This document shows, piece by piece, positions 13,852 through 37,333 of a stretch of DNA of 40,133 nucleotides; position 1 is the stretch's first letter, and every line of letters starts with the position of its first letter. The stretch is taken from the IMG/VR virus record IMGVR_UViG_3300031520_000047, positions 1 to 40,133 of that record; one strand, written 5' to 3'. A program made the translations under genes and the position numbers. The stretch comes from a virus (lineage: Duplodnaviria > Caudoviricetes). The notes below the pieces were generated by a model. The model ran no database searches. It was not told where the DNA came from and was given only the letters and a program-made list of their open reading frames with translations.

Positions 13852-13896
13852 CGGCTATTCAGCCGTCGCTTGTGCCCTCGCCTCGCGACGGCTTTT
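13852..13896 (+). terminator. Attenuator 1: CGGCT-ATTC-AGCCG overlapping a terminator
   Basis: Stem AGCCGTCGC/GCGACGGCT plus T tract. Confidence 0.75.
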
Positions 13897-13920
13897 CTGC
13901 GTTTAACTACCCAAACACCC

Positions 13921-14148
13921 ATGAACCTGTACTGCGAGCGATGCGGCAATAAAATCGGTGAACGAAACTCAGGCAAAGACGGTCTGAGCGTGGACACGAT
14001 CAGCATCAAAATCCGTGGAGCGCGCCGGCGCGTTTATGTTGTCCAGGTTATGCAGAGCATTGACTGTGACTACTGTTGCCACGTCGGCCCACCGTTCCCC
14101 TCCGTTCTGTCTGTGGCTGAGATGCGCGCTTTGCGGGGGTACGTCTGA
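13921..14148 (+). CDS. Zinc-ribbon protein, Mu Com-like (candidate late regulator)
   Basis: MNLYCERCGNKIG...ISIK...IDCDYC; immediately before terS. Confidence 0.6.
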   Translation: MNLYCERCGNKIGERNSGKDGLSVDTISIKIRGARRRVYVVQVMQSIDCDYCCHVGPPFPSVLSVAEMRALRGYV

Positions 14149-14783
14149 TGCCTAGTGCAGAAAAGATAGAACTTCCTGTCCTGACTGGCAAGCAGCGCGC
14201 CTTTGTGGACGCTTACTTTGTCTGCAACTTCAACGCGACCAAAGCCGCCATTCGTGCAGGCTACAGCGAAAAGACCGCTTATTCTATTGGCAGCGAGAAC
14301 CTGAAGAAACCTGAGATCACCCAGCACGTCTCCGCGCGCATGGCGGAAGCGGGCATGGCGGCTAACGAAGTCATCGCCCGTCTGACGCTGATTGGCGGCG
14401 TGGACATTGAAGACTTCATCGACATTGACGATGAAGTGGACTATGCCAATGAAAGCGTGATTGACAAAACCCTGCGCGAAGCCAATGAGCGGCTGGCACA
14501 GGCTTATCCCAAGCAAATGGGAGAGAAGCCCGGCTGGAAGCTAAATCTCGGCAAGGCGAAGAAGCACGGCAAGACGCACCTGATCAAGTCCATCAAGCAG
14601 GGGGAGTTCGGGCCGGAGCTGCTGCTGCATGACAGCCAGACTGCACTGAACACATTGGCCCGGCATCACGGCCTGCTGACCGACCGCGTGGAGCAAACCG
14701 GAGCCGCCCTGGACATCCTGCGCGATCTGCTGAGCGCACCACTGACCGAAGAAGAGGCGGAAGAGACTAAGCATGGCGAGTGA
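14148..14783 (+). CDS. terS: Terminase small subunit
   Basis: LTGKQRAFVDAY...NATKAAIRAGYSEKTAYSIGSENLKKPEI. Confidence 0.93.
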   Translation: MPSAEKIELPVLTGKQRAFVDAYFVCNFNATKAAIRAGYSEKTAYSIGSENLKKPEITQHVSARMAEAGMAANEVIARLTLIGGVDIEDFIDIDDEVDYANESVIDKTLREANERLAQAYPKQMGEKPGWKLNLGKAKKHGKTHLIKSIKQGEFGPELLLHDSQTALNTLARHHGLLTDRVEQTGAALDILRDLLSAPLTEEEAEETKHGE

Positions 14784-16089
14784 GCGCGGGCTTTTGCTAG
14801 CAAGGCGGTTGTGGGGCTGGAAGCCGCATTCGGCAGGGCAGCGCGACTTCATGCTGTCTCAAGCACGGGTGAAGGTGGCAGCGTGCGGGCGGCGCTGGGG
14901 CAAGAGCGAAAGCACAGCCATTGAGATTGTCGTGGATGCCATTGAAAACCCTGGCCTCATTCAGTGGGTGCTTGCCCCGACTGCCGACCAGACGCAGATC
15001 ATCATGGATGAGGTTGCCCGGCGCCTCTATGCCATTCCGGGTATGTCGGACAGCTATGCGGAGCGCAAATCCCCTTACCGCGAGTTCGTGTTCTGCGACG
15101 GCAAGGGCCTGCGTGAACCCGCCTCTATTCGCTCCCGCACAGTGGGCACCAAGGGCAAGGGGCTGCGCGGACGCAAGGGGCACAAGGTCATCATTGATGA
15201 GGCGGCGTTCGTGCCCGATGCCATTCTGGACAACGTCATCACGCCGATCCTCGCTGACTACGACGGGCAGCTTGTGCAGGTCAGCTCGCCCGATGGCGTC
15301 GGCACGGGCTTCCACAAGAACTTTGTCTATGGCGACAAGAGCAGCAGCAGCTACAACGCGCGCTATGAAAGCTTCCAGTTCCCGACAGAGAGCAACCCGT
15401 ACATCCCGCGCGCTTATCTAGACAACGAAGAAGCGACCAAGTCCGAGCAGGTCTTTGCACAGGAGTATCGGGCGCAGTTTCTGGACCGCGAAGGCAGTGT
15501 ATTCCGCAAGGTTATGGCGTGTGCAAACCTGGTGCCGATCTACCATGACGAAGGGCTGACGCTGTACCAGGAATGCGCATTGGCGCAGCATCAGTACGTC
15601 ATGGGGCTGGACTGGGCGCGCTCGCGCGACTTCACTGTGGCAAGCGTCTTTGACATCACCAGCCGCCAGATGGTGGCGCAGGACAGGTTCAACAAGATCA
15701 AGTTCGAGACGCAGCGCGACCGCATCAAAGTGCTACACAAACTCTTCCCCTGCGATGCCATCATTGCTGAAGAAAACAGCATTGGTCTGCCAAACATTGA
15801 AGCGCTGCAGGCAGAGGACTTGCCTGTGCAGCCATTCCTCACCACCAATGCCACCAAAAAGGCGTTGGTGGACACACTCGCCCTGGCCCTGGAGCTGCAA
15901 AACCTGTCCCTGCTCAACGAGGGCATATCCACTGGTGAGATGATGGCCTATCAGGGCGTCAAGCTGCCTTCGGGCCTCATGCAATACGGCGCGCCTGTTG
16001 GTCAGCACGACGACTGCGTAATGAGCATCATGCTGGCCGTGTGGGGCGCGGACAACGCCGGCGTGGACACTGCGCCTTCGATCTGGTAA
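14773..16089 (+). CDS. terL: Terminase large subunit
   Basis: Walker A GRRWGKS, Walker B VIIDEAA, nuclease GLDWARSRDFT and HDDCVMS. Confidence 0.95.
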   Translation: MASERGLLLARRLWGWKPHSAGQRDFMLSQARVKVAACGRRWGKSESTAIEIVVDAIENPGLIQWVLAPTADQTQIIMDEVARRLYAIPGMSDSYAERKSPYREFVFCDGKGLREPASIRSRTVGTKGKGLRGRKGHKVIIDEAAFVPDAILDNVITPILADYDGQLVQVSSPDGVGTGFHKNFVYGDKSSSSYNARYESFQFPTESNPYIPRAYLDNEEATKSEQVFAQEYRAQFLDREGSVFRKVMACANLVPIYHDEGLTLYQECALAQHQYVMGLDWARSRDFTVASVFDITSRQMVAQDRFNKIKFETQRDRIKVLHKLFPCDAIIAEENSIGLPNIEALQAEDLPVQPFLTTNATKKALVDTLALALELQNLSLLNEGISTGEMMAYQGVKLPSGLMQYGAPVGQHDDCVMSIMLAVWGADNAGVDTAPSIW

Positions 16090-16094
16090 CCACT

Positions 16095-17558
16095 ATGTCA
16101 CTTAAAGATACAATCTTGAATGCCTTTCGCGCTTCGGTGCCGGGGCAGATCGTCACCATCTCCGACCTGCTGGTGCAGGACATGAGCGACGCGGAGCGCG
16201 CCCGCATCCAGAAGATGAACGATGCCTGGGACGCCTATGCGGGCAAGCTTGAAGCGCCACTCAAGAAGACCAAAAGCGACCCCAACGCCAAAGACAACAT
16301 TCTGCTTAACCTTTCGGGGCCGGTCGTGGATACCGGCGTGTCGTTTCTCGTGGGCAAGCCCGTGCAGTTTGAGGTAGATGGCGGAACTGAGGTAGACGGC
16401 GGAGAAGAAGGCGAAGAGGAAAGCACGGCAGATCAGTGGCTGACCGAGTGCCTCAAGAAAGCGAAGATGCAGTCGAAGCTGCACATGATGGCGCTGAACG
16501 GCGGCGTGTGCGGCGACGTGTTCGTCAAGATCGTGCCCGGCAAGCCCTACCCGCGCATCGTTGTTTGGGACAGCACATCGGTGGATGTAGTTTCTGCCCC
16601 TGATGACTTCGAGCACGTGATGCAGTACAAGCTGCAATGGAACGGCATCGACCCCGTCACCAAGAAGGCGTGCGCCTACAGGCAGCTTGTCACCGAAGCC
16701 GAGAACGGGCAGTCGTGGACTATCGCCGACCAGAAGAGCGATCCGAACATCAAGCACTGGCAGCCGGTCGGCGAGCCTGTCAACTGGCCTTATGCGTGGT
16801 CGCCCATATTCCATTGCCAGAACCTGCCGTCACCCTGTTCCTACTACGGCGTCAGCGATCTGGAAGAGCATGTCGTCGAAGTCAACGACGCGATTAACTT
16901 TGTCATCAGCAACCTGGCCCGCATCGTGCGCATCCACGCGCACCCAAAGACGTGGGGCAAGGGCTTCAGCGCCAAAGAGCTTGAGATCGGCATTGACGAA
17001 ACTATCATCATCAAGAGCGCGACCGGCGAGCTGCAAAACCTGGAGATGCTCAGTGATCTGTCTTCTAGCCTGGCCCTCTACGACAAGCTCAAGGCCGTGA
17101 TGACCGAGATCGTGCGCGTGCCGGAAGTCGCGGCGGGCAAGCTGGACAGCATCGGGCAATTGTCGGGCCTTGCCATCCAGATCATGTTCCAGCCGCTGCT
17201 GCAGAAGAACGGCACCAAGCAGCTCTTGTATGGCGAGATGCTTTCCGACCTGTGCGCGCGGCTGCTGGAGCTTGGCGGCCAGGGCGAGGACCACACCGTT
17301 GACGTGGAATGGCCTGACCCGCTGCCTTCCGACCCGGTCGCGACGGGCGCAGCGGCGGAAGGGCATCAGCGCATGGGCATTGTGTCCAAAGACACGCTCG
17401 CTACCAAGTTTGGCTATGACTATAGCCAGGAGAAGGGCAAGATTGCCAGTGAGGGGCAGGACGCAGGCGATCAGCTACTCACCGCTTTTGATCGGGGCCA
17501 AACCAACAGTTCGGGCCAATCGGGGCCAAATGACCAAAGCAAAGGAAAGAAACAATGA
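16095..17558 (+). CDS. Portal protein (SPP1 gp6-like)
   Basis: Follows terL; N...VVDTGVSFLVGKPV, YGVSDLE, LSGLAI, V.WPDPLPSD, SKDT motifs. Confidence 0.9.
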   Translation: MSLKDTILNAFRASVPGQIVTISDLLVQDMSDAERARIQKMNDAWDAYAGKLEAPLKKTKSDPNAKDNILLNLSGPVVDTGVSFLVGKPVQFEVDGGTEVDGGEEGEEESTADQWLTECLKKAKMQSKLHMMALNGGVCGDVFVKIVPGKPYPRIVVWDSTSVDVVSAPDDFEHVMQYKLQWNGIDPVTKKACAYRQLVTEAENGQSWTIADQKSDPNIKHWQPVGEPVNWPYAWSPIFHCQNLPSPCSYYGVSDLEEHVVEVNDAINFVISNLARIVRIHAHPKTWGKGFSAKELEIGIDETIIIKSATGELQNLEMLSDLSSSLALYDKLKAVMTEIVRVPEVAAGKLDSIGQLSGLAIQIMFQPLLQKNGTKQLLYGEMLSDLCARLLELGGQGEDHTVDVEWPDPLPSDPVATGAAAEGHQRMGIVSKDTLATKFGYDYSQEKGKIASEGQDAGDQLLTAFDRGQTNSSGQSGPNDQSKGKKQ

Positions 17559-17833
17559 GCAGGCAACCAGGAGAAGTTCGCGAGGGCGACGCTGTGGCAA
17601 TTCGGCTGCTGAACAGCAGCAACACGGAAGAAGAGTTTAGCGGCCAGGTGCAGCAAGTTGTGGAATCGGGTGACGGCAGCAAGTCGTATATCGTTGCGTG
17701 TCCATTCCAGGTAGGGCCGGAGCATATCCGCGTCATTGTGCCTGTGGAACAGCTTGCCAAGCCTGCCGCAGACAAGACCACTGACCCGCGCGTGTCCTAT
17801 GTGGACGGCACTAAGATGACCGACCGACGCTGA
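17555..17833 (+). CDS. Hypothetical protein
   Basis: AAGGA RBS; ATGA overlap with portal. Confidence 0.6.
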   Translation: MSRQPGEVREGDAVAIRLLNSSNTEEEFSGQVQQVVESGDGSKSYIVACPFQVGPEHIRVIVPVEQLAKPAADKTTDPRVSYVDGTKMTDRR

Positions 17834-18121
17834 GGTAAAGCCATGGACTTACGAAGAAGCCGTTGCCGCTTCGCAGGGCGTCAATCCAAAGGTAGAAATC
17901 TTGCCCGAAGTAGAGCAGCCAGCCCACAACACGCAGGGCATTGTGGCCTGGGCGGCGGCGCATGCGCAGGAGATTGAAATGGGCGGCTCGCGCAAAGCCC
18001 CGCAAGGGTTCGCCGCGCCCGCCGCCGATGCCCAGCGCCCGGAGTTTGTGAAATCCGTGGCCGGGGCGGTGAGGGCCGGGGCAAAAGAGGGGGCGAGTGG
18101 TAGATGACCGACCGGCGCTGA
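17814..18121. repeat. 20-bp direct repeats flanking a 268-bp segment
   Basis: AGATGACCGACCGACGCTGA (17814-17833) and AGATGACCGACCGGCGCTGA (18102-18121), 19/20 identical. Confidence 0.85.
17843..18107 (+). pseudogene. Frameshifted hypothetical gene
   Basis: GAGGT RBS and ATG at 17843, but the protein-like frame (TYEEAVAASQGVNPK...) is offset by 1 nt. Confidence 0.45.
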
Positions 18122-18282
18122 AAACGCGATTGGTTCATCCGGTTGATAAGGCGTTGAGCGTCTTCTGCAACCAAGAATGATTTATAACCACAACCATTCT
18201 GCTCGTCCCAACAGGCGTATCGTTTGTTCACCCGGTCGAATACTAACACGTAGCGTTTTGTTCGTCGCTTTCCATACATCAT
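17881..18282 (-). CDS. Counter-oriented moron-like hypothetical protein
   Basis: Own extended -10 TGGTAAAAT 6 nt before ATG; AT-richer 5' half; true 3' end uncertain. Confidence 0.55.
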   Translation of the reverse strand: MMYGKRRTKRYVLVFDRVNKRYACWDEQNGCGYKSFLVAEDAQRLINRMNQSRFQRRSVIYHSPPLLPRPSPPRPRISQTPGAGHRRRARRTLAGLCASRPFQSPAHAPPPRPQCPACCGLAALLRARFLPLD

Positions 18283-18296
18283 AGCCTGATTTTACC

Positions 18297-19355
18297 ATGC
18301 CTGACGACATCTACACCATGGCCGCGCGCTTTCGGCAGGACTTGCTTGCCGGGGAGCGCGCGGCGGCGATGGAGATGGTGCGCGCTTACGGCGCATCGTA
18401 CCAGCGCATCAAAGAGGCCCTGCTTGCGCTTCTCACGCGCGTAGAGGCCGCCAAAGCGCGCGGAGAGTACTCCGCGTCATGGCTGTACCAAGAGGGGCGC
18501 CTGGAAAGCCTCCAGGCGCAGACGCTTTCCGAAATCCACCGCTTTGCCGCGTTTGCCGGGGACACAATTGAAACCCAGCAGCGGCAGGCGGTTTACAATG
18601 CGGAGGGAGAGGCGCAGGCGCTCGTGCGGGCCACATTGCCTCCCTCAGCACAGATCAGCTCTGCCGGCGTCGGCGTAACATTCAGCCGCCTCCCGACCAG
18701 CACCGTGCAGAGCCTGGTCGGACACTTGCAGGACGGTTCCCCGCTCAAAGAACTCTTGGACACACTCGCGCCCGAAGCGGCGAAGGGTGTGCGGGACGCG
18801 CTTGCGAGCGGCGTGGCGCGTGGTGAGGGCAGCCAGGTTATTTCGCGCGAAATACGGCAGGCGATGGGCGGGCCATTATCTAGGACGCTGACCATCAGCC
18901 GGACGGAGACGCTGCGCGCGTACCGAGAGGCAACGCGGCAGACGTATCAGGCCAATGGGCGCGTCGTGCAGGCATGGCAGTGGGTGGCGTCGCTGTCGCG
19001 CCGGACGTGCGCGATGTGCCTTGCTATGCACATGACCATCCACCCGCTGGATGAGCCGATGGGGTCACACCCGAATTGCCGCTGCGTCATGGTGCCGGTG
19101 ACGCGGCCCTGGTCGGAACTTGGGTTTGACGGGCTGGATAGCGAAGCGCCTGCCCCGGAAGACGGTGCGGCCTGGCTGGACAGGCAGAGCGAAGAGACGC
19201 AATTGGCAATCCTGGGGCCGGGCAAGCTGGCGGCGTACAAGCGCGGCGAGATTACCCTGGCTGACCTCGTGCGCTATCGCGATGACCCTCGGTGGGGACC
19301 GACGCGCACGGAGGCGAGCCTTGCCGACGCGCTGAAGAAAGTGAGGGGTAAGTGA
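18297..19355 (+). CDS. Minor head protein (SPP1 gp7/MuF family)
   Basis: ISRTETLRAY, W.WVA....RTCAMC, HPNCRC. Confidence 0.92.
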   Translation: MPDDIYTMAARFRQDLLAGERAAAMEMVRAYGASYQRIKEALLALLTRVEAAKARGEYSASWLYQEGRLESLQAQTLSEIHRFAAFAGDTIETQQRQAVYNAEGEAQALVRATLPPSAQISSAGVGVTFSRLPTSTVQSLVGHLQDGSPLKELLDTLAPEAAKGVRDALASGVARGEGSQVISREIRQAMGGPLSRTLTISRTETLRAYREATRQTYQANGRVVQAWQWVASLSRRTCAMCLAMHMTIHPLDEPMGSHPNCRCVMVPVTRPWSELGFDGLDSEAPAPEDGAAWLDRQSEETQLAILGPGKLAAYKRGEITLADLVRYRDDPRWGPTRTEASLADALKKVRGK

Positions 19356-19561
19356 TTAACGGAGACGCAACGGTTTTAGACCTTTTGCCAACGGTTCAGG
19401 AGTGTGTCAGTTGTCGGTGGAAGTCAAAAGAATTAGTCAAGGTGGGTAGATGGTCGTACTGTGCCCAGTGTCTTGCCAATGAATTGCTCCGCCAAGAAGA
19501 GATGGTTCGGCATCTCACCGCCTGCCTTGAGCGACACGACAAAAAAGTGAGGGGCGAATGA
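19352..19561 (+). CDS. Small zinc-finger hypothetical protein
   Basis: CVSC...CAQC; GTGA overlap. Confidence 0.55.
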   Translation: MINGDATVLDLLPTVQECVSCRWKSKELVKVGRWSYCAQCLANELLRQEEMVRHLTACLERHDKKVRGE

Positions 19562-19707
19562 ACGCCTACGAGAAACATGAGCAGGAATACAAGCGCGATA
19601 CGCGCATCTTGAACGGCTTGCTCAAGTTCGTCTTTCCAATGCTGCTTGTTGTGAGCATTGCTGCGCTTATCTGGGCGATTGTGGTGGTGTTTGAGGTGTT
19701 GAAATGA
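19558..19707 (+). CDS. Small single-TM membrane protein (49 aa)
   Basis: Manual translation MNAYEKHEQEYKRDTRILNGLLKFVFPMLLVVSIAALIWAIVVVFEVLK; ATGA overlaps both sides. Confidence 0.6.
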   Translation: MNAYEKHEQEYKRDTRILNGLLKFVFPMLLVVSIAALIWAIVVVFEVLK

Positions 19708-20021
19708 CTGATATAATTCCTGCCATGCCGTCTTCCGTGCGCGTGCTTGGCATGGATATGGCCGTCGTTGTCCGCACTGGCGACGATGCCCACATGGATG
19801 ACAAGTTCGGTTATTGCGACAACCTGCGTATGCGGATTGTGCTGAGCGAGAACAACACTCCGTCGCAGATGAGGGAAACGTGCCTGCATGAAGTGGTACA
19901 CGCTGTGGAGTGGGCTGTCAAAGCCGACATGGAAGAAGATGAGGTGGGGCGCATGGCACGCGGGCTGTTCGCTGTTCTGCGGGACAACCCCAGCTTTGTG
20001 AAGTGGATAATGGAGCAATAA
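19704..20021 (+). CDS. HExxH metallopeptidase-like phage protein
   Basis: FGYCD....RIVL......QMRETCLHEVVHAV. Confidence 0.75.
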   Translation: MTDIIPAMPSSVRVLGMDMAVVVRTGDDAHMDDKFGYCDNLRMRIVLSENNTPSQMRETCLHEVVHAVEWAVKADMEEDEVGRMARGLFAVLRDNPSFVKWIMEQ

Positions 20022-20043
20022 AACTGGCATCACCCTCCCCTGT

Positions 20044-20256
20044 AGTTTCCCCTCATCCCTGCCTATAATTAAATTGCGCTTCTCATTGGCGTTTTATCCT
20101 TCTGCGGGAGTCGATGCTCCTCAGATTAAATCAACCGCTCCTTCTCGGCAACTTGGAGGGAGCGGTTTTTTTTGCGCAAATGTGTCAACCAATGTGCCGT
20201 AATTATGCCGGTGTTGTGCCCATCTACTAAAGTTTCCCTTTGCCCCTGCCTATAAT
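20044..20256 (+). promoter_or_regulatory. Duplicated promoter (26-bp direct repeat ending in TATAAT)
   Basis: 20044-20069 vs 20231-20256, 22/26 identical. Confidence 0.7.
20075..20173 (+). ncRNA. Candidate ~100-nt small RNA
   Basis: TATAAT at 20064-20069, internal hairpin, terminator AACCGCTCCTTC/GAGGGAGCGGTT plus T tract; no ORF. Confidence 0.45.
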
Positions 20257-20285
20257 AGAACCAACGAATTGAACGCGCTTTGCGC

Positions 20286-20331
20286 GGCTATCCAGCCACC
20301 GACTTCTCTAGGAGAGGTCGGCGGCTTTTTT
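20286..20331 (+). terminator. Attenuator 2: GGCT-ATCC-AGCC overlapping a terminator
   Basis: Stem AGCCACCGACTTCTC/GAGAGGTCGGCGGCT plus T tract, before the scaffold gene. Confidence 0.8.
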
Positions 20332-20352
20332 GGCTTTTGGAGGCTTTTGCAT

Positions 20353-20991
20353 ATGTGGCGTTTGCTTGTTTTGGAAATGATGGCCGGTTATCGCACTGCC
20401 GACAGCGGTGCGGGCGATGGCGGAGGCGGCGCAGGTGACAATGGGGGCGCGGGCAATGGTGGCGGCTCTGGCGACGCAGGCAAAACCTACACGGCGGCTG
20501 AGTATCAAGCCTTGCAGGCGCAGTTTGCCGATGCGACCACCAAGCGCACCGAAGCAATGACCAAGCTGACCGACGCTACCACCAAACTGACCGCGTTGGA
20601 GCAGGCCCAGCTTTCTGATGCGGAGAAGCTGACCCTCAAAGCAAAAGAAGCCGAAGAGGGCCTGACGAAGCGCGAAACCGAACTGCGGCAGGAGCGCTTG
20701 GAGCGTTCCATTGAGCGCGAGGCGCGCAAGCTGAACGTCGTAGACGAAGACGCGGCCCTGCGGCTGCTGGACGTGTCCAAGATCAAGTATGACGACGCGG
20801 ACAAGCCTACCAATGTCGCAGAGCTATTAGGGCAGCTTGTCAAGGATAAGCCGTACCTGGTGGCCGTCGCCGGCAGTGGCGGCAGTGCGGCCAATCCGAG
20901 CCTCGGGCGCGGCGGAAGCCTGACGGCCACGCAGCAGATCGACAAAGAGTTTTCGCAGCGCGGGGGCAGCACGGGCGGCTTTCGCATCTAG
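20353..20991 (+). CDS. Capsid scaffolding protein
   Basis: Gly-rich N-terminus, coiled coil LSDAEKL, LVKDKPYL motif; directly before the capsid gene. Confidence 0.85.
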   Translation: MWRLLVLEMMAGYRTADSGAGDGGGGAGDNGGAGNGGGSGDAGKTYTAAEYQALQAQFADATTKRTEAMTKLTDATTKLTALEQAQLSDAEKLTLKAKEAEEGLTKRETELRQERLERSIEREARKLNVVDEDAALRLLDVSKIKYDDADKPTNVAELLGQLVKDKPYLVAVAGSGGSAANPSLGRGGSLTATQQIDKEFSQRGGSTGGFRI

Positions 20992-21033
20992 CGACAATCG
21001 TAAAATCAACCAGTCTCACCAATCTAAATATAG

Positions 21034-21047
21034 CGGCTATGCAGCCG
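21034..21047 (+). promoter_or_regulatory. CGGCT-ATGC-AGCCG hairpin abutting the capsid RBS
   Basis: Same motif as the attenuators but without a terminator; followed by GAAGGA and ATG. Confidence 0.6.
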
Positions 21048-21060
21048 GAAGGAAACCATT

Positions 21061-21942
21061 ATGGCAAACAACCTTTCGGCGTTTAACGCACAGGCGTGGA
21101 GCAAGCGCCTTATCACCAAACTCGACCCGATCTGCATCATGCTTGGCCTGGTCAACCGGGACTGGGAAGGCGAGCTGCAGAACGTCGGCGACACTGTGCA
21201 GGTGCGCACGCCCGGCAACATTCTGATGGGGCCGTATGCCAAGGGCACCACGATCAACTACCAGGATTTGCAGCCGATTAAAGAAGCGATGGTTATCGCC
21301 GACGCGGAGTATTTCGCGTTCCAGGTCGATGACCTGGACAAAGCGCAGAACGACCTCAAAGCGATGGACATCTATACTGGTCGTGCCGCCGTTGCCCTGC
21401 ACAACACCATCGACATCAAGCTGACCAGCTATTTCCCGCAGGCCGCCAACCATATCACTGACGCGGGCGGCGTGCCGCTGGTGCTGACTAAAGATAATGT
21501 GTACGGCGTTTTTGTCAAGGCGCGCACCATCCTCGGCAAGAACAACGTGCCTGTGGAAGGCCGCTGGGCTGTTGTTGACCCCGACCTGACCGGCGTGCTG
21601 CTTCAGGACACGACCCACTTTATCCGCTCCACCGACATGGGCGACACCATCGTTAAAGAGGGCATGACGCAGAACAACGGGCGGCCTGGCTACATCGGGC
21701 GCATCGCGGGCTTTGACGTGTACGAGTCAAATCATGTGCCTGTGGACGCGCAGGGCAACCGCACGCTTGGCTTTGGCGATCCTGCCTTTATTTCTTATGC
21801 CGCGCAGCTCAAAGAAATGGAGATGCTGCGCCTTCAGACGACCTTTGCCGACGCGGTGCGCGGCCTGATTCTGCACGACGGCCACGTGTTTGCCGAGTGC
21901 GCCAAGCGCGGCGTGTCGCTGTCGGCGGCTCCTGCCTCCTAA
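21061..21942 (+). CDS. Major capsid protein
   Basis: AWSKRLI...NRDWEGELQNVGDTVQV, L..NNVPVEGRWAVVDP, IGRIAGFDVYESN, FADAVRGL. Confidence 0.92.
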   Translation: MANNLSAFNAQAWSKRLITKLDPICIMLGLVNRDWEGELQNVGDTVQVRTPGNILMGPYAKGTTINYQDLQPIKEAMVIADAEYFAFQVDDLDKAQNDLKAMDIYTGRAAVALHNTIDIKLTSYFPQAANHITDAGGVPLVLTKDNVYGVFVKARTILGKNNVPVEGRWAVVDPDLTGVLLQDTTHFIRSTDMGDTIVKEGMTQNNGRPGYIGRIAGFDVYESNHVPVDAQGNRTLGFGDPAFISYAAQLKEMEMLRLQTTFADAVRGLILHDGHVFAECAKRGVSLSAAPAS

Positions 21943-21976
21943 GCCGCTACGCCTGCTTCTTAAGCAAAGGTTACTT

Positions 21977-22510
21977 ATGGTCCGTCCAACAATGGCAGCG
22001 CTGATTGCCCGGCTTCGGCGAATGATCAGCGACAAGGATGCGCCCCCGGTCTTCAGCGATGATGACCTCGGGGACATCCTGGACGGGCAACAGTTTGTGG
22101 AGCGGTACCTGCCCGTTGAGGGCACGGTGACCTACAAGCCGGGCGGCGGGATCGAGTGGCACGACTTTTATGCGCAGGACGGCGACTGGGAAGACGGCGT
22201 CGTATTTGTGACCATTGGCTTTGAGCCGGTCGCGCCGACCACGAGCGACCTGCGCGTGGGGCACTGGACGTTTGATGCGCCTCAGCTCCCGACGATCTAC
22301 CTGACCGGCAAGAATTACGATTTGTACGGCGCGGCGGCAGACGCGCTGGAGCAGTGGGCGGCCATCGTCAAGCGCAAGTACGACGTGCAATCCGCCGACC
22401 AAAAGCTCATGCGCTCGCAGCAGAGCAAGGCGATGCTCGACCTTGCCGAAACCTGTCGCGAGAAGCAGCGCCCCCAGCGCATGACGATGGTGCGCAGCGA
22501 TGTCAATTAA
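21977..22510 (+). CDS. Head-tail adaptor
   Basis: ARLRRMISD....VFSDDDL, YGAAADALE; position after capsid. Confidence 0.75.
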   Translation: MVRPTMAALIARLRRMISDKDAPPVFSDDDLGDILDGQQFVERYLPVEGTVTYKPGGGIEWHDFYAQDGDWEDGVVFVTIGFEPVAPTTSDLRVGHWTFDAPQLPTIYLTGKNYDLYGAAADALEQWAAIVKRKYDVQSADQKLMRSQQSKAMLDLAETCREKQRPQRMTMVRSDVN

Positions 22511-26776: not shown

Positions 26777-26799
26777 GCCGACAATAGCAAGTATCGCGT

Positions 26800-26842
26800 G
26801 GCTATTCAGCCGCCCTCCCCCATTGGGGGAGGGCGGCTTTTT
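26800..26842 (+). terminator. Attenuator 3: GGCT-ATTC-AGCC overlapping a terminator
   Basis: Stem AGCCGCCCTCCCCC/GGGGGAGGGCGGCT plus T tract. Confidence 0.85.
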
Positions 26843-30400: not shown

Positions 30401-32243
30401 GGAGCGCTTCGACGGGTCGGATAAAGGCATAGCCGCCAAAAAGTGGCTTGCCGCGCAGATGGCCGACATCAACAAAGACGAAGTCAAAGCCGAGCAAGAG
30501 CAGAGCAAGAAACTCAAAGCCGAGCACGACAAGCGCGTCAAGGAAGCCCTGGACGCTTCTTCCGCGATTGCCAAGACCAAGCGCAGCCTCTACGACGACA
30601 TCTACGCTACGACGCCCGGCAAAGGCGGCAAGCTGCCCTCTGAGTTTGACGTGCGCCGCCGCACGGCCCATGAAGACTACGGTGACCATGTGCAGGCGCT
30701 GGTCAGCGAAAAGGTCAAGCCCGGCGTGGCGCGGGGCCTCGTGCAGCCATGGCTTGCCGGGCAGATGGGGCAGATCGGGCGCGATGAAAAGGACGCCCGC
30801 GCCAAGCAAAGGGAAGTGGATGCGCGGGCACAAAAACCAGGCGTGGAGCTCCTCAGCGACATCAAGAAAATCGGCGCGGAGTCGCAGGCCAAAGAAGTCA
30901 CCGATCCGGGCGAGGCCGCCTGGCAGAAGTTTGTCGCCGACCATGCGGAAGGTTACGCGCTGATTGCCCAAAAAGCCCCTATTGCGGCACGTGCGCACAT
31001 GGACTTCCTGAAGGCGTTCGCTGTAAGCAGCGCGAGCGACCAGGCCAAAGAGAACCTGAAGACGCTGGCAAAGTTTCATCTGGAGATGACGGACAAGATG
31101 ATTGCCGTCCGCTCCAAAGTGACCGACGCCGCCGATCCGGCGCTTGCCGCCTGGCATGAGTATCTGGCGACACATGACGACGTGGTCAAGGCCATCGGCA
31201 AAGACGCGGGCGCGGCGGCGCAGGCCTTCGCACAGTTTCGGGCGGAGTTTGTCACCGAGCAAGACGCGCAAACCCTGGAGCAGTACTACCAGCAGATGAG
31301 CCGCATCCATCAGCAGATGCTGGAAACGCAGGCGCGCACGCCGGAAGAGAAGATGTTCGCGCAGACGCTGCAATCCGACGGCACGGGCGGACTGAAGCAG
31401 GCTTTCTCTAGTGACCAGATCAAGAACATGGCGACCCAGCAAAAGCAGCTTGGCGACATGCAGGCGAAGGTGCAGCAGACGCAGGCGGCATGGCAGTCCA
31501 TGTCGGGCGTTGTGCAGTCAGGCCTCGACCATTTGATGCAGCGCGGCTTCAATGGCTTCTTTGCCAATGTTGTGCAGGGCTTCCGAGGCATGTTCCGGCA
31601 GATCGCCGTGGAGTATTTGCGCAACGAAGCGATGCAGGCGATGCAGCGCGGTTTGTCCGGCATCCTGAATGGCAAGCAGAAGGGCGGCGGGGCAACGGGA
31701 GGCGTGGCCGCCGCCGCGCAGGCGGCGCAGGGCGCGCAGCTTGCCGGGGCGGCAACGGCGCTCACAGCGGCAGGCACGGGGCTTGCAGCCACGGCGGGGG
31801 TACTTACAGCTTCGGGCGCGGGCCTGACGGGAGCCGGGGCCGGGCTGCTCGGGGCGAGTGCCGGGCTTGTCGGCGGAGGCACGGGCCTGGTGGCGGCGGC
31901 GGCGGCGCTGGTGGCGGCGGCGGCGGCTTCAAGTGCGAGCAGCGCGATGTTGGGGATTTCCGGCGCGCGGGCGGATGGCGGCTCGGTCATCGGCGGAAAC
32001 CGGTACCTTGTGGGCGAGCGCGGGCCGGAGATTGTGACGATGGGCGGCAATGGGTTTGTGACGCCAAACCACCAGATCAGGACGGCGAGCGCAGGGGCCG
32101 GAGGCGGCGGCGATAGCCACTTCCATGCCCATGTGACCGTGCAGGGCAACGGGAGCGCCGATGCCAACCGGCGCACCGGGCAGCAGGTGGGGCAAGCGGC
32201 AATGGCGGAGATGCAGCGGGCGCAGCGGAGAAACGGCGTTTAA
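27420..32243 (+). CDS. Tape measure protein with embedded NlpC/P60-CHAP-like domain
   Basis: 1607 aa, TP901-type core, SCAYFAS...AGDLIAW...HVGIYAGNG, C-terminal RADGG...YLVGERGPE. Confidence 0.93.
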   Translation: MANVVLSARISADISSLEAGLVRADASLRDFSKTATAAGGEAAKGMSLPGAAAEKTAAQVAVSQARMAELWTRSGAAQTRAAELGAQAGRLATESLTLEGKAAQIAAEKIGGLSAASQVAAASAESFAARAAQTATALDATAAAGARASAGMSALGAVGMAAAGLTILDGLAVKVAISFQAMTQTIANNTTMTTAELGNMRQSVLDLSRGTGTSFQSLAEGYMHVSNFGFAAADAQKVLTEANKSAVATGSDAAQTADILAKGLHEYGLSADYAGRVMNVFHLAAAQGNMTLQQFDAAMGPTIGAAANLGVSLADVAAAETALTQHGQDAFEASTQLKSILEHIVNPTAEASKALTVLGNLTGIDLVKDFSLAGLHAKGLNGVMADLSRATQGHSDIVLKLIPAMRGGYGAMILAGTGARDYRHALLQANDAMAGKIDPTSKAYNETMQTAAQRFKALTQSIQVDLLPAGNRLLGTLQSLEPAAANVANAVTTVVDVFSRFPAPVQEVIIALGAAKVASSLFGLSLLGVDGKMGGVVMRIPAMINGLRGIETAAGSAAVAEGALATEGIAAFAIGGGFMIAIAAVAVAVLAIANAWNKAKDAQAGYAKHKAEVVAYVNTGDQRTNEQHQAELNNQQAGKVHAAIVSLQNQENTKQLALNPLPKGSEVAHGLQGQIADLAHQIAVKTAQETALRRDASALGGSLANTSDLQNTRSNIQGEVKKIDGTIGTTQASLTGLENKLSVLKASIAAQKNNQLAQINLAKQIADVQGQITSDESALAALKKSRHEQVANYNKLEPLARQETKQKWGAGMDAGTSIMNHITDAINTPQGKASCAYFASELMRASGVAVPLTGGAKALKEWAVGVGAVAHSLAEAKAGDLIAWHGKRYGAMKDKNGEGDHVGIYAGNGMIRQSSGNGPGHDRMMHMYDAPHAQFYTVPDSAIGGKVAKALDADKFNAALKAKGDDAAKQHQGFLGDTFSLNNTEFATRRHDAQERFDGSDKGIAAKKWLAAQMADINKDEVKAEQEQSKKLKAEHDKRVKEALDASSAIAKTKRSLYDDIYATTPGKGGKLPSEFDVRRRTAHEDYGDHVQALVSEKVKPGVARGLVQPWLAGQMGQIGRDEKDARAKQREVDARAQKPGVELLSDIKKIGAESQAKEVTDPGEAAWQKFVADHAEGYALIAQKAPIAARAHMDFLKAFAVSSASDQAKENLKTLAKFHLEMTDKMIAVRSKVTDAADPALAAWHEYLATHDDVVKAIGKDAGAAAQAFAQFRAEFVTEQDAQTLEQYYQQMSRIHQQMLETQARTPEEKMFAQTLQSDGTGGLKQAFSSDQIKNMATQQKQLGDMQAKVQQTQAAWQSMSGVVQSGLDHLMQRGFNGFFANVVQGFRGMFRQIAVEYLRNEAMQAMQRGLSGILNGKQKGGGATGGVAAAAQAAQGAQLAGAATALTAAGTGLAATAGVLTASGAGLTGAGAGLLGASAGLVGGGTGLVAAAAALVAAAAASSASSAMLGISGARADGGSVIGGNRYLVGERGPEIVTMGGNGFVTPNHQIRTASAGAGGGGDSHFHAHVTVQGNGSADANRRTGQQVGQAAMAEMQRAQRRNGV

Positions 32244-32244
32244 T

Positions 32245-32838
32245 ATGTTTCATGAAATTTTACTGCCCGATGAGCTGGCGTATGGGGCGGAGTTTGGGCC
32301 GGAATACAAAACCACCAAAGTGCAGACCGGCTCCGGGGGCGAGCAGCGCATCGTGCAGTGGCCGCGCGCGCGGCGACGAGGAACGGTCGGATACAAGATT
32401 CGCAGCCGTGATCAGATCAATGCGCTGCGCGCGTTCTACCTCGCGCGATTTGGCGATGCGATTGGCTTTCGGTTTTCAGATAACGCCGACCGCGACGTGG
32501 CGAATGAGCCTCTGGTAAACACGGGCGGCACGATGCTGCAACTGCAAAAAGCAGACACCGACGGGGCAGGCTTTGCCTCGGTGCGCACGATCAGGAAGCC
32601 GTCGCTCACCGGCCCGTTCACGCTTTACAAAGACGGCGCCGCCATGATGGGCGGCTACGCTTTGGATGTGACGACCGGGATTATCACTCTCGCCTCTGCT
32701 GCGCCGGGGAGCGTCTTCACCTGGTCGGGGCGCTTTGACGTGCCGGTGCGCTTTGACGGCGACTGGATGAACGGAAAACGTGACGACTTCGATGTGCATT
32801 CCTGGGAAGGCATCGCCATCGTAGAGTTATTGATTTAG
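32245..32838 (+). CDS. Distal tail protein (DUF2460, GTA-like)
   Basis: MFHEILLP...GPEYKT....SGGEQR...W, FYLARFGDAIGFRF.D, FDVPVRFD. Confidence 0.9.
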   Translation: MFHEILLPDELAYGAEFGPEYKTTKVQTGSGGEQRIVQWPRARRRGTVGYKIRSRDQINALRAFYLARFGDAIGFRFSDNADRDVANEPLVNTGGTMLQLQKADTDGAGFASVRTIRKPSLTGPFTLYKDGAAMMGGYALDVTTGIITLASAAPGSVFTWSGRFDVPVRFDGDWMNGKRDDFDVHSWEGIAIVELLI

Positions 32839-32865
32839 CCGTTGCTCATTTAGGGGGATTATTCC

Positions 32866-34260
32866 GTGCGAAATATGTCGGCGGCGCTGTTCGCGCACTT
32901 GCAAGGGGACACGCTCACGACCGCGAACTGCGTGCGGCTCGCGCGCACGGACGGCGTCGTCATGGCCTGGACGGACTGCAATATCCCGCTGACGTTCGAC
33001 GGAATGACCTACGCGGCGAGCGATGGGGTCGGGCTAAGGAACCTCAAGGCGGCGGCGGGCACGGGCGTGGACAACATGGAAACGGTGCTGCTGCTCATGC
33101 CGGGCGGCATCACCGAGGACGGCATCCGGGCCGGACTGTACGACAATGCGCCCGTGACGCTCTCTTTGGTCAACTGGGCGGATTTGTCGCAGGGGAGCCT
33201 GACGCTGCTGCGCGGGCGCGTGGGCGAGATCACCCTGACCGATGGGCAGTGCGTGGCGGAAGTGCGCAGCCTGTCGCAGCTTCTGCAGCAGCAGATCGGA
33301 GACGTGACCAGCCCGTCGTGCCGCGTGCGCAGGCTCGGAGACGCGCAGTGCAAGGTAGACATGACGCGCTTTCGCTTTGCGCGCATGCTCACGGCATTGG
33401 GCGGGTCGGCGAGCGGGCAGCCGGCGCAGGCGCTCACGCAAACAAACTGCGGCGGCGGCGCGGCGGCGCCGTTCGGGGCAGACGCGGGCAGTTCGGGCGG
33501 GGGCACGGGGAGCACGGGCAACGCGGTGGCGACTACGGGTGTCACGGGGGCCGCGCCTGCCGATGTGTACCAAACTTCGCGCTATGGGAAAACCTTTTCT
33601 TATGCGCTTTCCGGGTACACGCCGGGCCAGGATTACACGCTGCGCCTGCACTTTGCCGAAACGTTCTTCGGGCCGCCCTCGCCCCCTGGTGGGCCAAGCA
33701 TGACGCATGGCGGGGGGACAGGCTCACGCATCTTTGACGTGGCCGCGAACGGGGCGCGGGTGCTGCAAAGCATTGACATTTATCAAGCGGCAGGGGGAAG
33801 CAACCTGGCGACGGTGCAGGAACTGGAAGTCACCGCAGACGCATCGGGAGCGCTGCACATTGTCTTTACGGCGAGTGTGGACAATGCAAGCTGCTGCGGC
33901 CTGGAAGTGCTGACCCTGGCCGCGCCCGGCGTGCCTGCCGGGCTGGTGTTCGCAGGCGACGGCGCGGCGAGCGGCTTTTACACGCATGGCGTCATAACGT
34001 TCACGAGCGGTGCGAACGCAGGCCTGGCGCGGGAAATCAAGGGGCACGGCCTTGCGGGCGGCGCGGCCATTATCAGCCTGCAAGGGCAGTTTCCGTTTGC
34101 CGTGGCCGTGGGCGACGCGGCGATTTTAGAAGCGGGCTGCGCCCGCCGCCTGCCGACGTGCGTGGAAAAGTTCAATAACGCCGCAAACTTTCGGGGCGAG
34201 TCGCTCCTGCCCGGCAACGATCAGGTCATGCGCGTAGGCCGGGGGACTGCTGATGGTTAG
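32866..34260 (+). CDS. Baseplate hub (DUF2163/BR0599) with inserted malectin domain
   Basis: C.RLARTDG...TD, GLYDNA, C...LGDAQC, GC.R.L.TC..KFNN..NFRGE; central VYQTSRYG...LRLHFAE...RIFDV. Confidence 0.88.
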   Translation: MRNMSAALFAHLQGDTLTTANCVRLARTDGVVMAWTDCNIPLTFDGMTYAASDGVGLRNLKAAAGTGVDNMETVLLLMPGGITEDGIRAGLYDNAPVTLSLVNWADLSQGSLTLLRGRVGEITLTDGQCVAEVRSLSQLLQQQIGDVTSPSCRVRRLGDAQCKVDMTRFRFARMLTALGGSASGQPAQALTQTNCGGGAAAPFGADAGSSGGGTGSTGNAVATTGVTGAAPADVYQTSRYGKTFSYALSGYTPGQDYTLRLHFAETFFGPPSPPGGPSMTHGGGTGSRIFDVAANGARVLQSIDIYQAAGGSNLATVQELEVTADASGALHIVFTASVDNASCCGLEVLTLAAPGVPAGLVFAGDGAASGFYTHGVITFTSGANAGLAREIKGHGLAGGAAIISLQGQFPFAVAVGDAAILEAGCARRLPTCVEKFNNAANFRGESLLPGNDQVMRVGRGTADG

Positions 34261-34669
34261 TGGGCAAGATATTGTGAGAGAGGCGCGCACTTGGATCGGC
34301 ACGCCCTTCCATCACGCGGCGCGGGTCAAAGGCGTGGGCGTGGACTGCGCCGGGCTGCTGGTGGGCGTGGCGCATGCGCTGGGCCTGCCTGTCCAAGATG
34401 ACACGCGCTACCACGCGCAGGACAATCTCGCGCGCATGCGGACGGCACTCGCGCGTGAATGCGAGATCGTGCCGGAAGAAGAGGATGTGTTTCCTGGCGA
34501 CGTACTGCTGCTGATTGGGCGCGGCATGCCGAACCACCTCGCGATCTTCAATGGCAACGGCGGCATGATCCATGCGTGGCGGTCGGCAGGGGGCGTGGTG
34601 GAGCACAAGATTGACGAAGCGTGGGTAGACAACGTCGTGGACGTGTACCGGCTGAGGGGACTAAGTTAG
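34253..34669 (+). CDS. Tail-associated NlpC/P60 peptidase
   Basis: ARTWIGTPFHH...GVGVDCAGLL...PGDVLL...HLAI...MIHA. Confidence 0.92.
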   Translation: MVSGQDIVREARTWIGTPFHHAARVKGVGVDCAGLLVGVAHALGLPVQDDTRYHAQDNLARMRTALARECEIVPEEEDVFPGDVLLLIGRGMPNHLAIFNGNGGMIHAWRSAGGVVEHKIDEAWVDNVVDVYRLRGLS

Positions 34670-34690
34670 ATGGCGCGAGGCTTGAATTAA

Positions 34691-37231
34691 ATGGCGACGC
34701 TGGCGTTGGGCATTGCAGGGGCGGTGGTGGGATCGGCGTTCGGCAATCCGATGCTGGGCTTCTCCATTGGCACGGCCATCGGAAGCATGATCGATGCGCC
34801 GCGTGTGCCCGGCCAGGAAGTCGGCAAGGTCGACGACCTGCACGTGTCCGGGTCGAGCTACGGCACGGCCATTCCGGTTGTCTGGGGCGGCGGGCGGCTC
34901 GCGGCGAACCTCATCTGGGCGACGGATTTAGTGCTGCACCAGACGACGCAGCACCATGGCAAGGGCGGCGGGCCGAGCACCAAGACGGACACCTACAGCG
35001 TGTCCTGTCAGGCGCTGGTGTGCGCAGCAGGCCGCAATGCCCGCGTGACGCGCGTTTGGGGCGATGACCTCGTGCTGTGGGAAGCCGGGTACAGCGGCAA
35101 CCTGGTAACGCCGCGCTTTTTGTCAGGCGATGAAAGCCAGAATGCCGACGTGCTGGTCGCGGCCAATCCTGGCAGCGGCTTTGCGGCAGGGCAAACGCCG
35201 GCCTGCCGGGGGCAGCTTACGTTTGTGCTGCAAGACCTGCCGCTGCAAAACTTCAGCAACCGTCTGCCGAACCTCAGCGTGGAAGTCGCCACCGACCCGG
35301 TTTCACTCGCTGACGTGCTGGGCGACTTGTGCTTGATGGCCGGGCTGACCACAGACGATTTTGATTTCTCCGGCGCGTCGGCGCAAATGGTGACCGGGTA
35401 CGTTTTGCAGTCGCGGCAATCAGCAGCAGAGGCGATCAAGCCGCTGCTCGCCTCCTACTTTTACGACTTGGTGGAAAGTGACGGCCTACTACGCGCTGTG
35501 CCGCGCGGCGGTGCGCCGCTGCTGACGGTTTCTGCCGGCGATCTCGGGGCGAGCACAGGCGGCGCAGGCGAAGTGATGCGCATCAGCGAGAAGCGCACTC
35601 AGGAAGCCGAGATGCCCTACCGCGTGGACGTGACGTACTACAACGCCGCTAAAGACTACCAAAAGGCATTGCAGGGAGCGGTCTGCCAGACGGCGACGGG
35701 GCAGGACGCGCAGAGCATTTCCCTGCCGCTTGCACTCCTTGACGCGGACGCGCAGGGAGTGGCAATGCGCCTGCTTCAAGACGCGCGGGCGCAGCGCGCA
35801 CCCCTGACGTTTGCCCTGCCACCTCGCTACTTGCAGGTCACCCCCGCCGACGTGCTCTTGGTGCCACTGACGCATATTGACAATACCGTGTCAATGGCGC
35901 GGGTGCGTATCACCAGCGTAGATTTGGCCCTGCCCGGAGAAATCCACTTCGAAGCGGTGACTGACGATGACGGCGTGTTGGTGCAAGCCGGCATCGCCTC
36001 TGCCGCGCCGCCGCCCGTGCGCACGTACCTGGCCGCCGTGCCGACGCAGTTTTACGCCTGGTCGGGCAAAGAATTGCAGGATGCTGACCAAGCCGCGCCG
36101 GGCTTCTATGTCGCAGCGACCGGGCCGGGCGGCTGGCACGGGGCCGCAGTTTGGTACAGCGCTGACAATGGAAACTCCTACCTGCCGGCAGGCACGGTCA
36201 GCCAGCGCAGCGTTTTGGGGACGGCAGGGGTGGCTTTAGCGGACGGAGCGCCGGGCGCGTTTGACAGCGCGAATAGCCTGGCCGTGACGCTTTCGGCAGG
36301 CGGGGCGCTTGCCACCACGACCGAAGCGCAGGTCAGCCAGGGCGTCAATGCCGCCCTTGTCGGCGGGGAGCTGCTTGGCTTTGCCACGGCCACGCTGACC
36401 GCGCCGGAGGCTTACACGCTCACCGACCTGCTGCGCGGCGGGCGCGGATCGCAGGCGAGCGGACACGCGGCAGGCGAGCCGTTTGTGCTGCTGACGCCTG
36501 CCGTCCTGCGCGTGCCCGTGAATGCGACCCTCGCCGGACAGACGGTGCTGGTCAAGTGCGTCTCGGATTATCAGCAGCTTTCGGACGTGGCCGCGCAGCC
36601 GGTCGTCATTGCGGCCCGGACGCCGACGGCGGTAGAACAACATGTCACGGCTGTGGAAGCACAAGCGGCGGCGCAAGGAGCGGCGATCAGCGCCTTGCAG
36701 GGGCAGGTGAATGCTCTGCCTCGGCCAGTGCCGACACCCTTCTACCGGATCAGTGGGTACCCGAGCAGCCGCCGGGCATCTGGGGATACTTTAGACGACA
36801 GTTACTTTGACGGTGGGGCCAATGTGCCAAGCGGGGCACTGCAGACAAAATGGACGCACTACGCCAGTGGGCCGGGCGGGTCGCTCTGGCTAACGGGGTT
36901 TGAGGCGTGGGCACTGCGCTGCAAGATGGGCCTCAAAAACACAACAGGCGCGGCCATTAGCGTGCCCATCGCCGCGCCGATTGTGGATGATTATGTCAAA
37001 CTCACGTGGGCGGGAGCAACAGTGTATGAAACGCAGAGCACCAATGGCGTGCCGACTACGGCAGGCCCAGCGACGCTGACCATTGCGGCAGGGCAGTCGG
37101 GGGTGCTGACAATCTACTACTACAACAGGCAGGGCGGTAGCGGCACCGACAGCGGCAACCCAATGGCTCTGCGGGTGCTGCATGACGCACTGATCGCGGC
37201 AGGGGTCGCATTTGTGGATGCCGGCCCGTGA
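34691..37231 (+). CDS. Central tail fibre/host specificity protein (GTA-like)
   Basis: SSYGTAIPVVWG..RLAANLIWA, RVWGD, NRLPNLSVEV, LVGGELLGF, LLRGGRGS; coiled coil plus C-terminal beta domain. Confidence 0.88.
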   Translation: MATLALGIAGAVVGSAFGNPMLGFSIGTAIGSMIDAPRVPGQEVGKVDDLHVSGSSYGTAIPVVWGGGRLAANLIWATDLVLHQTTQHHGKGGGPSTKTDTYSVSCQALVCAAGRNARVTRVWGDDLVLWEAGYSGNLVTPRFLSGDESQNADVLVAANPGSGFAAGQTPACRGQLTFVLQDLPLQNFSNRLPNLSVEVATDPVSLADVLGDLCLMAGLTTDDFDFSGASAQMVTGYVLQSRQSAAEAIKPLLASYFYDLVESDGLLRAVPRGGAPLLTVSAGDLGASTGGAGEVMRISEKRTQEAEMPYRVDVTYYNAAKDYQKALQGAVCQTATGQDAQSISLPLALLDADAQGVAMRLLQDARAQRAPLTFALPPRYLQVTPADVLLVPLTHIDNTVSMARVRITSVDLALPGEIHFEAVTDDDGVLVQAGIASAAPPPVRTYLAAVPTQFYAWSGKELQDADQAAPGFYVAATGPGGWHGAAVWYSADNGNSYLPAGTVSQRSVLGTAGVALADGAPGAFDSANSLAVTLSAGGALATTTEAQVSQGVNAALVGGELLGFATATLTAPEAYTLTDLLRGGRGSQASGHAAGEPFVLLTPAVLRVPVNATLAGQTVLVKCVSDYQQLSDVAAQPVVIAARTPTAVEQHVTAVEAQAAAQGAAISALQGQVNALPRPVPTPFYRISGYPSSRRASGDTLDDSYFDGGANVPSGALQTKWTHYASGPGGSLWLTGFEAWALRCKMGLKNTTGAAISVPIAAPIVDDYVKLTWAGATVYETQSTNGVPTTAGPATLTIAAGQSGVLTIYYYNRQGGSGTDSGNPMALRVLHDALIAAGVAFVDAGP

Positions 37232-37235
37232 GTCG

Positions 37236-37270
37236 TGGTATAATAACTACAGCATATAATAACTACAGCA
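37236..37270 (+). promoter_or_regulatory. Endolysin promoter with perfect 16-bp tandem duplication
   Basis: TGG then TATAATAACTACAGCA twice (37239-37254, 37255-37270). Confidence 0.75.
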
Positions 37271-37283
37271 GTTCCATACTCAT

Positions 37284-37333
37284 CGGCTATTCAGCCGCCC
37301 AAGTCTCTTAAACGGAGACTTGGGCGGCTTTTT
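37284..37333 (+). terminator. Attenuator 4: CGGCT-ATTC-AGCCG overlapping a terminator
   Basis: Perfect 15-bp stem AGCCGCCCAAGTCTC/GAGACTTGGGCGGCT plus T tract. Confidence 0.85.

Follow-up and report, generated by a model that had tools for sequence, protein, structure and literature searches.

In sugar operons, the proteins BglG, SacY and LicT stabilise a ribonucleic antiterminator (RAT) hairpin of ~30 nucleotides (nt) with internal loops, which excludes the 5′ arm of a terminator and acts in a site-specific manner. ANTAR proteins work through tandem twin hairpins with hexaloops, an RNA that overlaps a terminator arm and recurs in several operons of one regulon. In the lambda Q/pR′-tR′, N/nut and HK022 put systems, late genes lie behind terminators until a phage factor appears, and RNA polymerase (RNAP) is modified processively. 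Here we describe a mini-hairpin with an AUNC tetraloop that overlaps predicted intrinsic terminators ahead of the late modules of a temperate phage, IMG/VR record IMGVR_UViG_3300031520_000047, together with a small zinc-ribbon protein that may read it. The record, a prophage-type genome of 40,133 bases, was analysed over its whole length and is called the window below.

As in the BglG/LicT-RAT systems, the antiterminator hairpin of the window is, from folding, mutually exclusive with an intrinsic terminator, and its action would be site-specific and not processive. However, it measures 12–14 nt and belongs to a phage late programme, and no CAT/PRD domain was found by Pfam among the 64 open reading frames (ORFs) of the window. 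With ANTAR control it shares a small hairpin that overlaps a terminator arm and is repeated across modules, whereas each cassette of the window has a single tetraloop hairpin; the Pfam scan of window ORFs found no ANTAR domain. As with lambda Q and N, late genes are held behind terminators, but each module has one cassette of its own, competition between structures is direct, and no match to the Q, N, sigma, RinA or ArpU families appeared among the window ORFs scanned with PHROGs, Pfam and NCBIfam. A preliminary description of this DNA had likewise recognised no Q-like or sigma-like late activator.

The Com protein of phage Mu is the other close comparison. According to PMC6483171, its target in mom is CC(N)2-3GAG in a six-base loop, and the translation-inhibiting structure (TIS) of mom consists of a short hairpin overlapping a helix that hides start signals. 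The window resembles this system in pairing a small phage protein, a predicted four-cysteine zinc ribbon, with a short hairpin that has a competing structure beside it, and its fifth hairpin copy, at the capsid ribosome-binding site (RBS), is predicted by folding to have a TIS-like layout. In contrast, all window loops are AUNC and not the CC(N)2-3GAG hexaloop, predicted terminators make up four of the five sites, and genes for virion and lysis proteins take the place of mom as targets. Membership of the protein in Com (PF10122) was tried and rejected, with no match for the window protein at an expectation value (E) up to 10 or for ten homologues at E up to 1; nor was homology detectable with hhalign, which gave profile A4 and Mu gp54 a probability of 0.7%, over the first knuckle only. 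The mobile attenuators treated in PMC2965389 are a different thing from the window system. The full-text literature searched, which largely lacked subscription journals, yielded no description of phage late genes gated module by module through hairpin/terminator pairs and a zinc ribbon. The feature is real, and its logic resembles that of BglG/RAT and Com/mom.

Hairpin–terminator cassettes and the capsid ribosome-binding site

The motif GGCTATYCAGCC occurs exactly at 13853, 20286, 26800 and 37285, on the + strand in 4/4 cases. With one mismatch allowed, the window holds six matches against a shuffle mean of 0.38, and none of 100 shuffles reaches six. In each of the four copies the AGCC half also forms the base of a GC-rich hairpin, where it pairs with a GGCT that precedes a T run; these terminator hairpins, numbered 1–4, have predicted energies of −19, −23, −33 and −31 kcal/mol and unrelated interiors. 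A scanner requiring an AUNC tetraloop, a stem of at least four pairs and a 3′ strand that begins a terminator found four such cassettes in the window (mean 0.13, maximum 3 in 60 shuffles). The features are as follows.

13824–13829, + strand: −10-like hexamer CATAAT of cassette 1, putative promoter
13852–13865, + strand: mini-hairpin 1, CGGCU-AUUC-AGCCG (motif and folding)
13861–13898, + strand: predicted terminator 1, ahead of zinc ribbon, TerS, TerL and portal; at −19 kcal/mol and with a short U run, the weakest of the set
20251–20256, + strand: TATAAT of cassette 2, putative promoter
20286–20297, + strand: mini-hairpin 2, GGCU-AUCC-AGCC (motif and folding)
20294–20331, + strand: predicted terminator 2, ahead of scaffold (ATG at 20353) and capsid (folding)
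26780–26785, + strand: −10-like GACAAT of cassette 3, putative promoter
26798–26813, + strand: mini-hairpin 3, GUGGCU-AUUC-AGCCGC (folding)
26808–26842, + strand: predicted terminator 3, ahead of putative tail chaperones and tape measure (folding)
37239–37260, + strand: two TATAAT of cassette 4 (37239, with TG extension, and 37255), putative promoters
37284–37297, + strand: mini-hairpin 4, CGGCU-AUUC-AGCCG (motif and folding)
37293–37333, + strand: predicted terminator 4, ahead of the GH25 endolysin (folding)

The modules behind the cassettes are zinc ribbon/TerS/TerL/portal, scaffold/capsid, tail chaperones/tape measure and endolysin, in this order. Thus the four copies, their overlap with terminators of unrelated interior and the four late modules that the preliminary description had placed behind them all stand, the copies exceeding shuffles and the modules by library scans of the ORFs. 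Its loop, AUYC, was right as a conserved tetraloop and too narrow as a consensus: over the window copies, including a fifth that reads AUGC, the consensus is AUNC with a variable third base, and a second prophage (G045, below) has AUAC. It had also named Rfam and related prophages as places to look; Rfam gave 0 matches at gathering scores over the whole window. G045, an unrelated prophage, carries seven AUNC cassettes.

Mini-hairpin and terminator are mutually exclusive, as had been proposed, because the 3′ strand of the hairpin is the base of the other structure. When the leaders were folded both ways, the terminator was the minimum free energy structure at all four window sites, and forcing the mini-hairpin cost 3–7 kcal/mol (3.5, 7.3, 5.0 and 4.4 kcal/mol on leaders 1–4, and 3.0–5.3 kcal/mol on short cassettes). 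The smallest switching cost, 3.0–3.5 kcal/mol, is that of cassette 1, which guards the zinc-ribbon gene. If the last 9 nt are kept out of the fold, the predicted probability of the mini-hairpin stays at ~1 until the polymerase is 6–8 nt into the U run, and hence terminator closure would need strand displacement at the moment of decision.

The fifth copy has no terminator and lies at the capsid gene, next to its Shine–Dalgarno (SD) sequence.

21034–21047, + strand: mini-hairpin 5, CGGCU-AUGC-AGCCG (GGCT-ATGC-AGCC at 21035), without terminator, adjoining the capsid SD
21044–21080, + strand: predicted translation-inhibiting helix of 9 base pairs (bp), 21044–21052 with 21072–21080, burying the capsid SD and enclosing the AUG at 21061

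Here the 3′ strand of the mini-hairpin is the base of the SD-burying helix, so that the two forms again exclude each other. Fixing mini-hairpin 5 costs 3.1–5.7 kcal/mol and raises the unpaired fraction of the SD from 0% to 6–52%, depending on the stretch folded. In these folds the hairpin element appears to control translation as well, at the capsid RBS. The layout of copy 5, like that of the Com/mom TIS, indicates recognition of the element at the RNA level.

The −10-like hexamers noted earlier at 13824, 20251, 26780 and 37239 are present, and the palindromes of the window cassettes start 20–46 bp past them; their standing as promoters is weaker, since a −35/−10 consensus scan called none of the hexamers upstream of the cassettes and such hexamers are not constant in G045. 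Ahead of the endolysin cassette, TATAATAACTACAGC stands in direct duplication (37239–37270) and yields the two −10-like hexamers there. A further perfect palindrome, TTTCGCGCGAAA, has four copies, at 2585, 13780, 18841 and 26762, two of them just upstream of the hexamers of cassettes 1 and 3. That it is a host repeat was ruled out, as it occurs once each in 3/5 genomes tested.

One strong predicted terminator has no box.

20133–20173, + strand: strong predicted terminator without box, ahead of cassette 2

This terminator would stop read-through from the terminase–portal–MuF block. Since it is ungated, the head module should require a separate promoter, in keeping with the TATAAT at 20251. The same region (20058–20173) begins with CCCTGCCTATAAT, found again at ~20245, and continues with a ~95-nt stretch of three hairpins that ends in the boxless terminator (z-score −4.1), a candidate small RNA.

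The zinc ribbon and a second phage with the same loop

The first gene behind cassette 1 is the following.

13921–14148, + strand: four-cysteine zinc ribbon of 75 amino acids with a basic β-hairpin, KIRGxRRRxYV; candidate hairpin-binding switch protein

A word search with this ORF matched only itself, whereas an exhaustive search gave five full-length relatives and a profile made from these gave four more, nine database homologues in all. The family pattern is CxxC..G..ISxKIRGxRRRxYVV..CxxC.G.P, and C5, C8, C49 and C52 are invariant in 11/11 sequences, which predicts a small four-cysteine zinc ribbon. An alignment-based model is β-rich, with a three-strand sheet carrying the basic motif (predicted local distance difference score, pLDDT, 79.7), while folding of the single sequence was poor (pLDDT 47). 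Structural search of the model gave no match at E 0.001 in pdb and viral libraries (best Z 2.9) and no Com among the listed matches; other fold and PDB searches returned nothing informative, and the Atlas only unnamed clusters. Of 10 differences in a strain contig, 7 are synonymous and none affects the four conserved cysteines, so that the ORF looks like a real gene. In strain contigs, box 1 and its terminator base are unchanged, with one U·G to C-G change in the interior; these contigs differ too little for this to carry weight as evidence.

Searched with a profile of the zinc-ribbon family (A2), 401 genomes of the phylum gave two matches, the better of them on contig C47 of G045 (E 3.7e-6 per genome). 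This homologue shares C5, C8, G13, R32, R37, Y39, V41, C49, C52 and P58 with the family. One AUAC cassette lies just upstream of it and another just downstream, a third follows TerS, and four more, one directly ahead of the major head gene, lie on contig C126, the end of which repeats that of C47. Each of the seven has the sequence G(C/T)GG(T/C)-ATAC-GCCGC with a predicted terminator behind it and is oriented along the late strand; the scanner reported an eighth match without the box (C47 19530) and a mean of 0.1 in 60 shuffles. A TATAAT lies within 75 nt of one of the seven, weaker TAnnnT words near four, and none near two. The virion genes of G045 are of another type, a podovirus-like prophage with an SU10-type portal and a different capsid, and tblastn of window proteins against C47 and C126 found no match at E 0.01. 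Hence, the loop and the zinc ribbon are what both phages visibly share.

Eight stems were aligned, four from the window, three from G045 and one from a viral locus, L015. In this alignment 95% of cells pair, against 20–58% in slid controls, and four of five pairs change on both sides, the closing pair being U-A, U·G or C-G. The loop bases A, U and C are kept in 12/12 copies in the two phages, and it is the sense strand that reads AUNC. As background, AUNC cassettes occur at five distinct sites in 3.9 Mb of other loci, two of which had been fetched by the pattern itself. Because G045 was found through the protein profile and has the same loop with compensated stems, these observations point to a hairpin that acts as an RNA element and is tied to the zinc ribbon. 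They thereby support the reading of the preliminary description, both for action at the level of RNA and for the protein it had named.

A proposed switch and its competitors

We favour, as rather probable, a mechanism in which the zinc ribbon binds the AUNC hairpin, blocks terminator closure, frees the capsid RBS and drives positive feedback through its own leaky cassette, a reading drawn from sequence and folding. The mini-hairpin is predicted to fold first. Without ligand, the downstream GGCU would displace it and RNAP would stop; bound zinc ribbon would bar this strand invasion, and a shortened hairpin would stay four bases off the U run, giving read-through. The zinc-ribbon gene lies behind the weakest cassette, 76 nt past the replication gene. 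Once the prophage is induced, early transcripts that run through the replication gene, or ones started at the local −10, may leak past cassette 1 and give the first protein. From then on, positive feedback would release the five switches at once, namely the operon of the zinc ribbon itself, the remaining three modules and the capsid RBS, as a timer replacing a Q-type or promoter activator.

Several observations weigh against this mechanism. The link between protein and RNA rests on two phages, and the covariation amounts to a handful of independent events because copies within one phage are not independent. Among four homologue loci with DNA, only G045 has AUNC cassettes. In G391 (L385 174–368, contig C72), where the homologue follows a primase-like gene in a phage-satellite-like locus, the one cassette after it, GCCU-GGAC-AGGC on a terminator base, has a GGAC loop and not AUNC; the G419 homologue, ahead of MuF, has no cassette on its 5.2-kb contig, and a partial match in G039 has none in 20 kb. 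The nine closest homologues entered the comparison as proteins alone. Computed switching costs of the G045 cassettes are 7–13 kcal/mol, above those of the window, and therefore a kinetic effect would be needed there. At the capsid, the RBS region folds just modestly better than shuffles do (z −2.0, 6/200 as stable), and in longer folds with mini-hairpin 5 fixed a 5-bp remnant covers much of the SD. In addition, TTTCGCGCGAAA is a candidate operator and hints at control at the promoter level too, and several early window ORFs without annotation could be the factor.

The last point leads to the strongest competitor, though we hold it unlikely: that the RNA switch is real but its operator is some other product of phage or host, such as an unannotated early protein or antisense RNA, the zinc ribbon being simply a gated late gene. 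The G419 and G039 homologues without nearby cassette, the many early ORFs without family, and genome G003, with five analogous cassettes of a different box and no small zinc ribbon found near them, would all fit. Yet it was the protein alone that led to G045, where the loop recurs seven times, and the negative tblastn between window and G045 contigs left no other shared factor to be seen. An antisense RNA in particular is disfavoured, since a base-pairing partner would sit badly with stems that covary and a third loop base that varies, and the putative small transcript at 20075–20173 has no complement to the box.

Folding order also admits a ligand-free hairpin, since a mini-hairpin that folds first and is displaced by branch migration could weaken termination without a protein and set fixed step-downs between modules. 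We consider such a tuner improbable, because it could do without a constant loop, and yet 12/12 copies preserve A, U and C while stems change, and the same hairpin is used at an RBS too.

Still less credit goes to the reverse sign of action, with the zinc ribbon opening the mini-hairpin and favouring termination and RBS closure. In both phages a cassette immediately precedes its gene, as negative autoregulation would have it, but the terminator is already the stable form unaided, and conserved pairing and loop suggest that the folded hairpin is what is recognised. Least of all do we credit an operator read as DNA, by a dimeric protein that represses, activates or acts as a roadblock, with incidental terminator overlap, because GGCT-N4-AGCC, though indeed a DNA palindrome 20–46 bp downstream of −10-like hexamers, tolerates G·U pairs, shows compensated stem changes, has an asymmetric loop reading AUNC on the sense strand in 12/12 copies, and keeps its register to the terminator and not to the −10, which some G045 copies lack nearby.

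Returning to the zinc ribbon as an antiterminating ligand, a wider claim, for which we see the chances as evenly balanced, is that of a third route of late control, in which a tiny zinc ribbon of a family unrelated in sequence to Com reads one tetraloop both as antiterminator and as translational activator. Such a route would be self-amplifying and portable between siphovirus-like and podovirus-like genomes, with co-evolving and probably orthogonal protein–loop pairs. This bears on how prophages without a Q, sigma or RinA/ArpU-type activator time their late genes. If true, a 75-amino-acid protein and a 12–14-nt RNA tag would open many terminators and one RBS at once with positive feedback, and small unannotated zinc ribbons beside terminase genes would gain a function. 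Moreover, so small a protein–RNA switch could serve as an orthogonal part for transcription and translation control.

Host, gene order and look-alike cassettes

Scans with PHROGs and Pfam place a serine integrase (416–2020), a helix-turn-helix repressor (4228–4713), RecT, ParB, VRR-NUC, an Acb2/Tad1-like gene and a replication gene ending at 13776 upstream of the late region. The late order is TerS, TerL, portal, MuF, scaffold, capsid, neck and tail genes, tape measure, baseplate and GH25 endolysin. The best genome match of the capsid is a Chthonomonadales metagenome-assembled genome (65%), and G041, also Chthonomonadales, holds a syntenic prophage (TerL 50%); the host is therefore probably a member of the Armatimonadota. 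Strain-level relatives of the window phage are present in rock metagenomes from a second study.

The AUNC cassette family is rare in what was searched. The exact window cassette gave 3 matches in the 401 genomes of the phylum against 6 for a reversed control, and 55 loci among viral contigs, none with multiple copies. G045-type patterns matched G045 alone in 251 genomes; in viral contigs, 69 loci yielded 8 scattered weak matches and 32 loci yielded 0 cassettes, and no zinc-ribbon homologue was found in these 69 and 32 loci. A back-translated protein pattern gave 0 matches, P0144 0 loci and TerL 0 viral loci, and among 194 fetched capsid homologue loci only the window's own record has a repeated AUNC cassette. 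In the class of G045, profile A4 gave 5/71 matches, two with internal stops. A scan of 68 genomes, likewise of a single class, with PF10122 gave one match over cut-off. Of the 55 viral loci with the exact cassette, L015 (10001, from G005) is the only one where a strong terminator matches it; this single GGCT-ATCC-AGCC copy closes a gene cluster on the lysis side and may be chance; no zinc-ribbon homologue at a meaningful E was found in L015.

Two related prophages, G041 and G132, and the phage of G003 have similar layouts. In G041 (C1, ~1519800–1543600, minus strand), strong terminators precede zinc-finger/TerS, scaffold, tape-measure and putative lysis genes, and a CxxC..CxxC gene occupies the slot of the window zinc ribbon, with the first late terminator immediately before it. 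A different box is common to the leaders of the zinc-finger and lysis genes, and its GCCU..AGGC pairing would sequester the 5′ arm of the terminator. G132 has TATAAT, a terminator and a 72-amino-acid zinc finger in a row, again a small CxxC..CxxC gene after the first late terminator, and its pre-scaffold terminator carries an AGGC-AUUAAC-GCCU hairpin; this zinc finger has weak matches to Com-type PHROGs (E 0.014 and 0.075) and no alignment with A4. The five terminator-overlapping cassettes of G003 (L056 ~2070, 4050, 4536, 4600 and 6551) use the box GC-A-GCG-loop-CGC-GC with a bulged A, and one copy has a compensated pair; a motif search found no small zinc ribbon near them. From these three cases, the hairpin–terminator architecture recurs with different loops and proteins.

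A cassette resembling those of G003 is also present at L061 ~2840, and in a low-GC phage locus GGTA-TTAA-TACC sits on a terminator base ~900 nt upstream of a capsid gene (L214 9105). Within the window, 12089–12250 encodes a 53-amino-acid Acb2/Tad1 hairpin-domain protein above the Pfam cut-off, a candidate anti-defence sponge, 10199–10576, which follows ParB, has a prokaryotic-ubiquitin (Prok_Ub) domain, and 32866–34260 encodes a baseplate hub with an inserted malectin domain.

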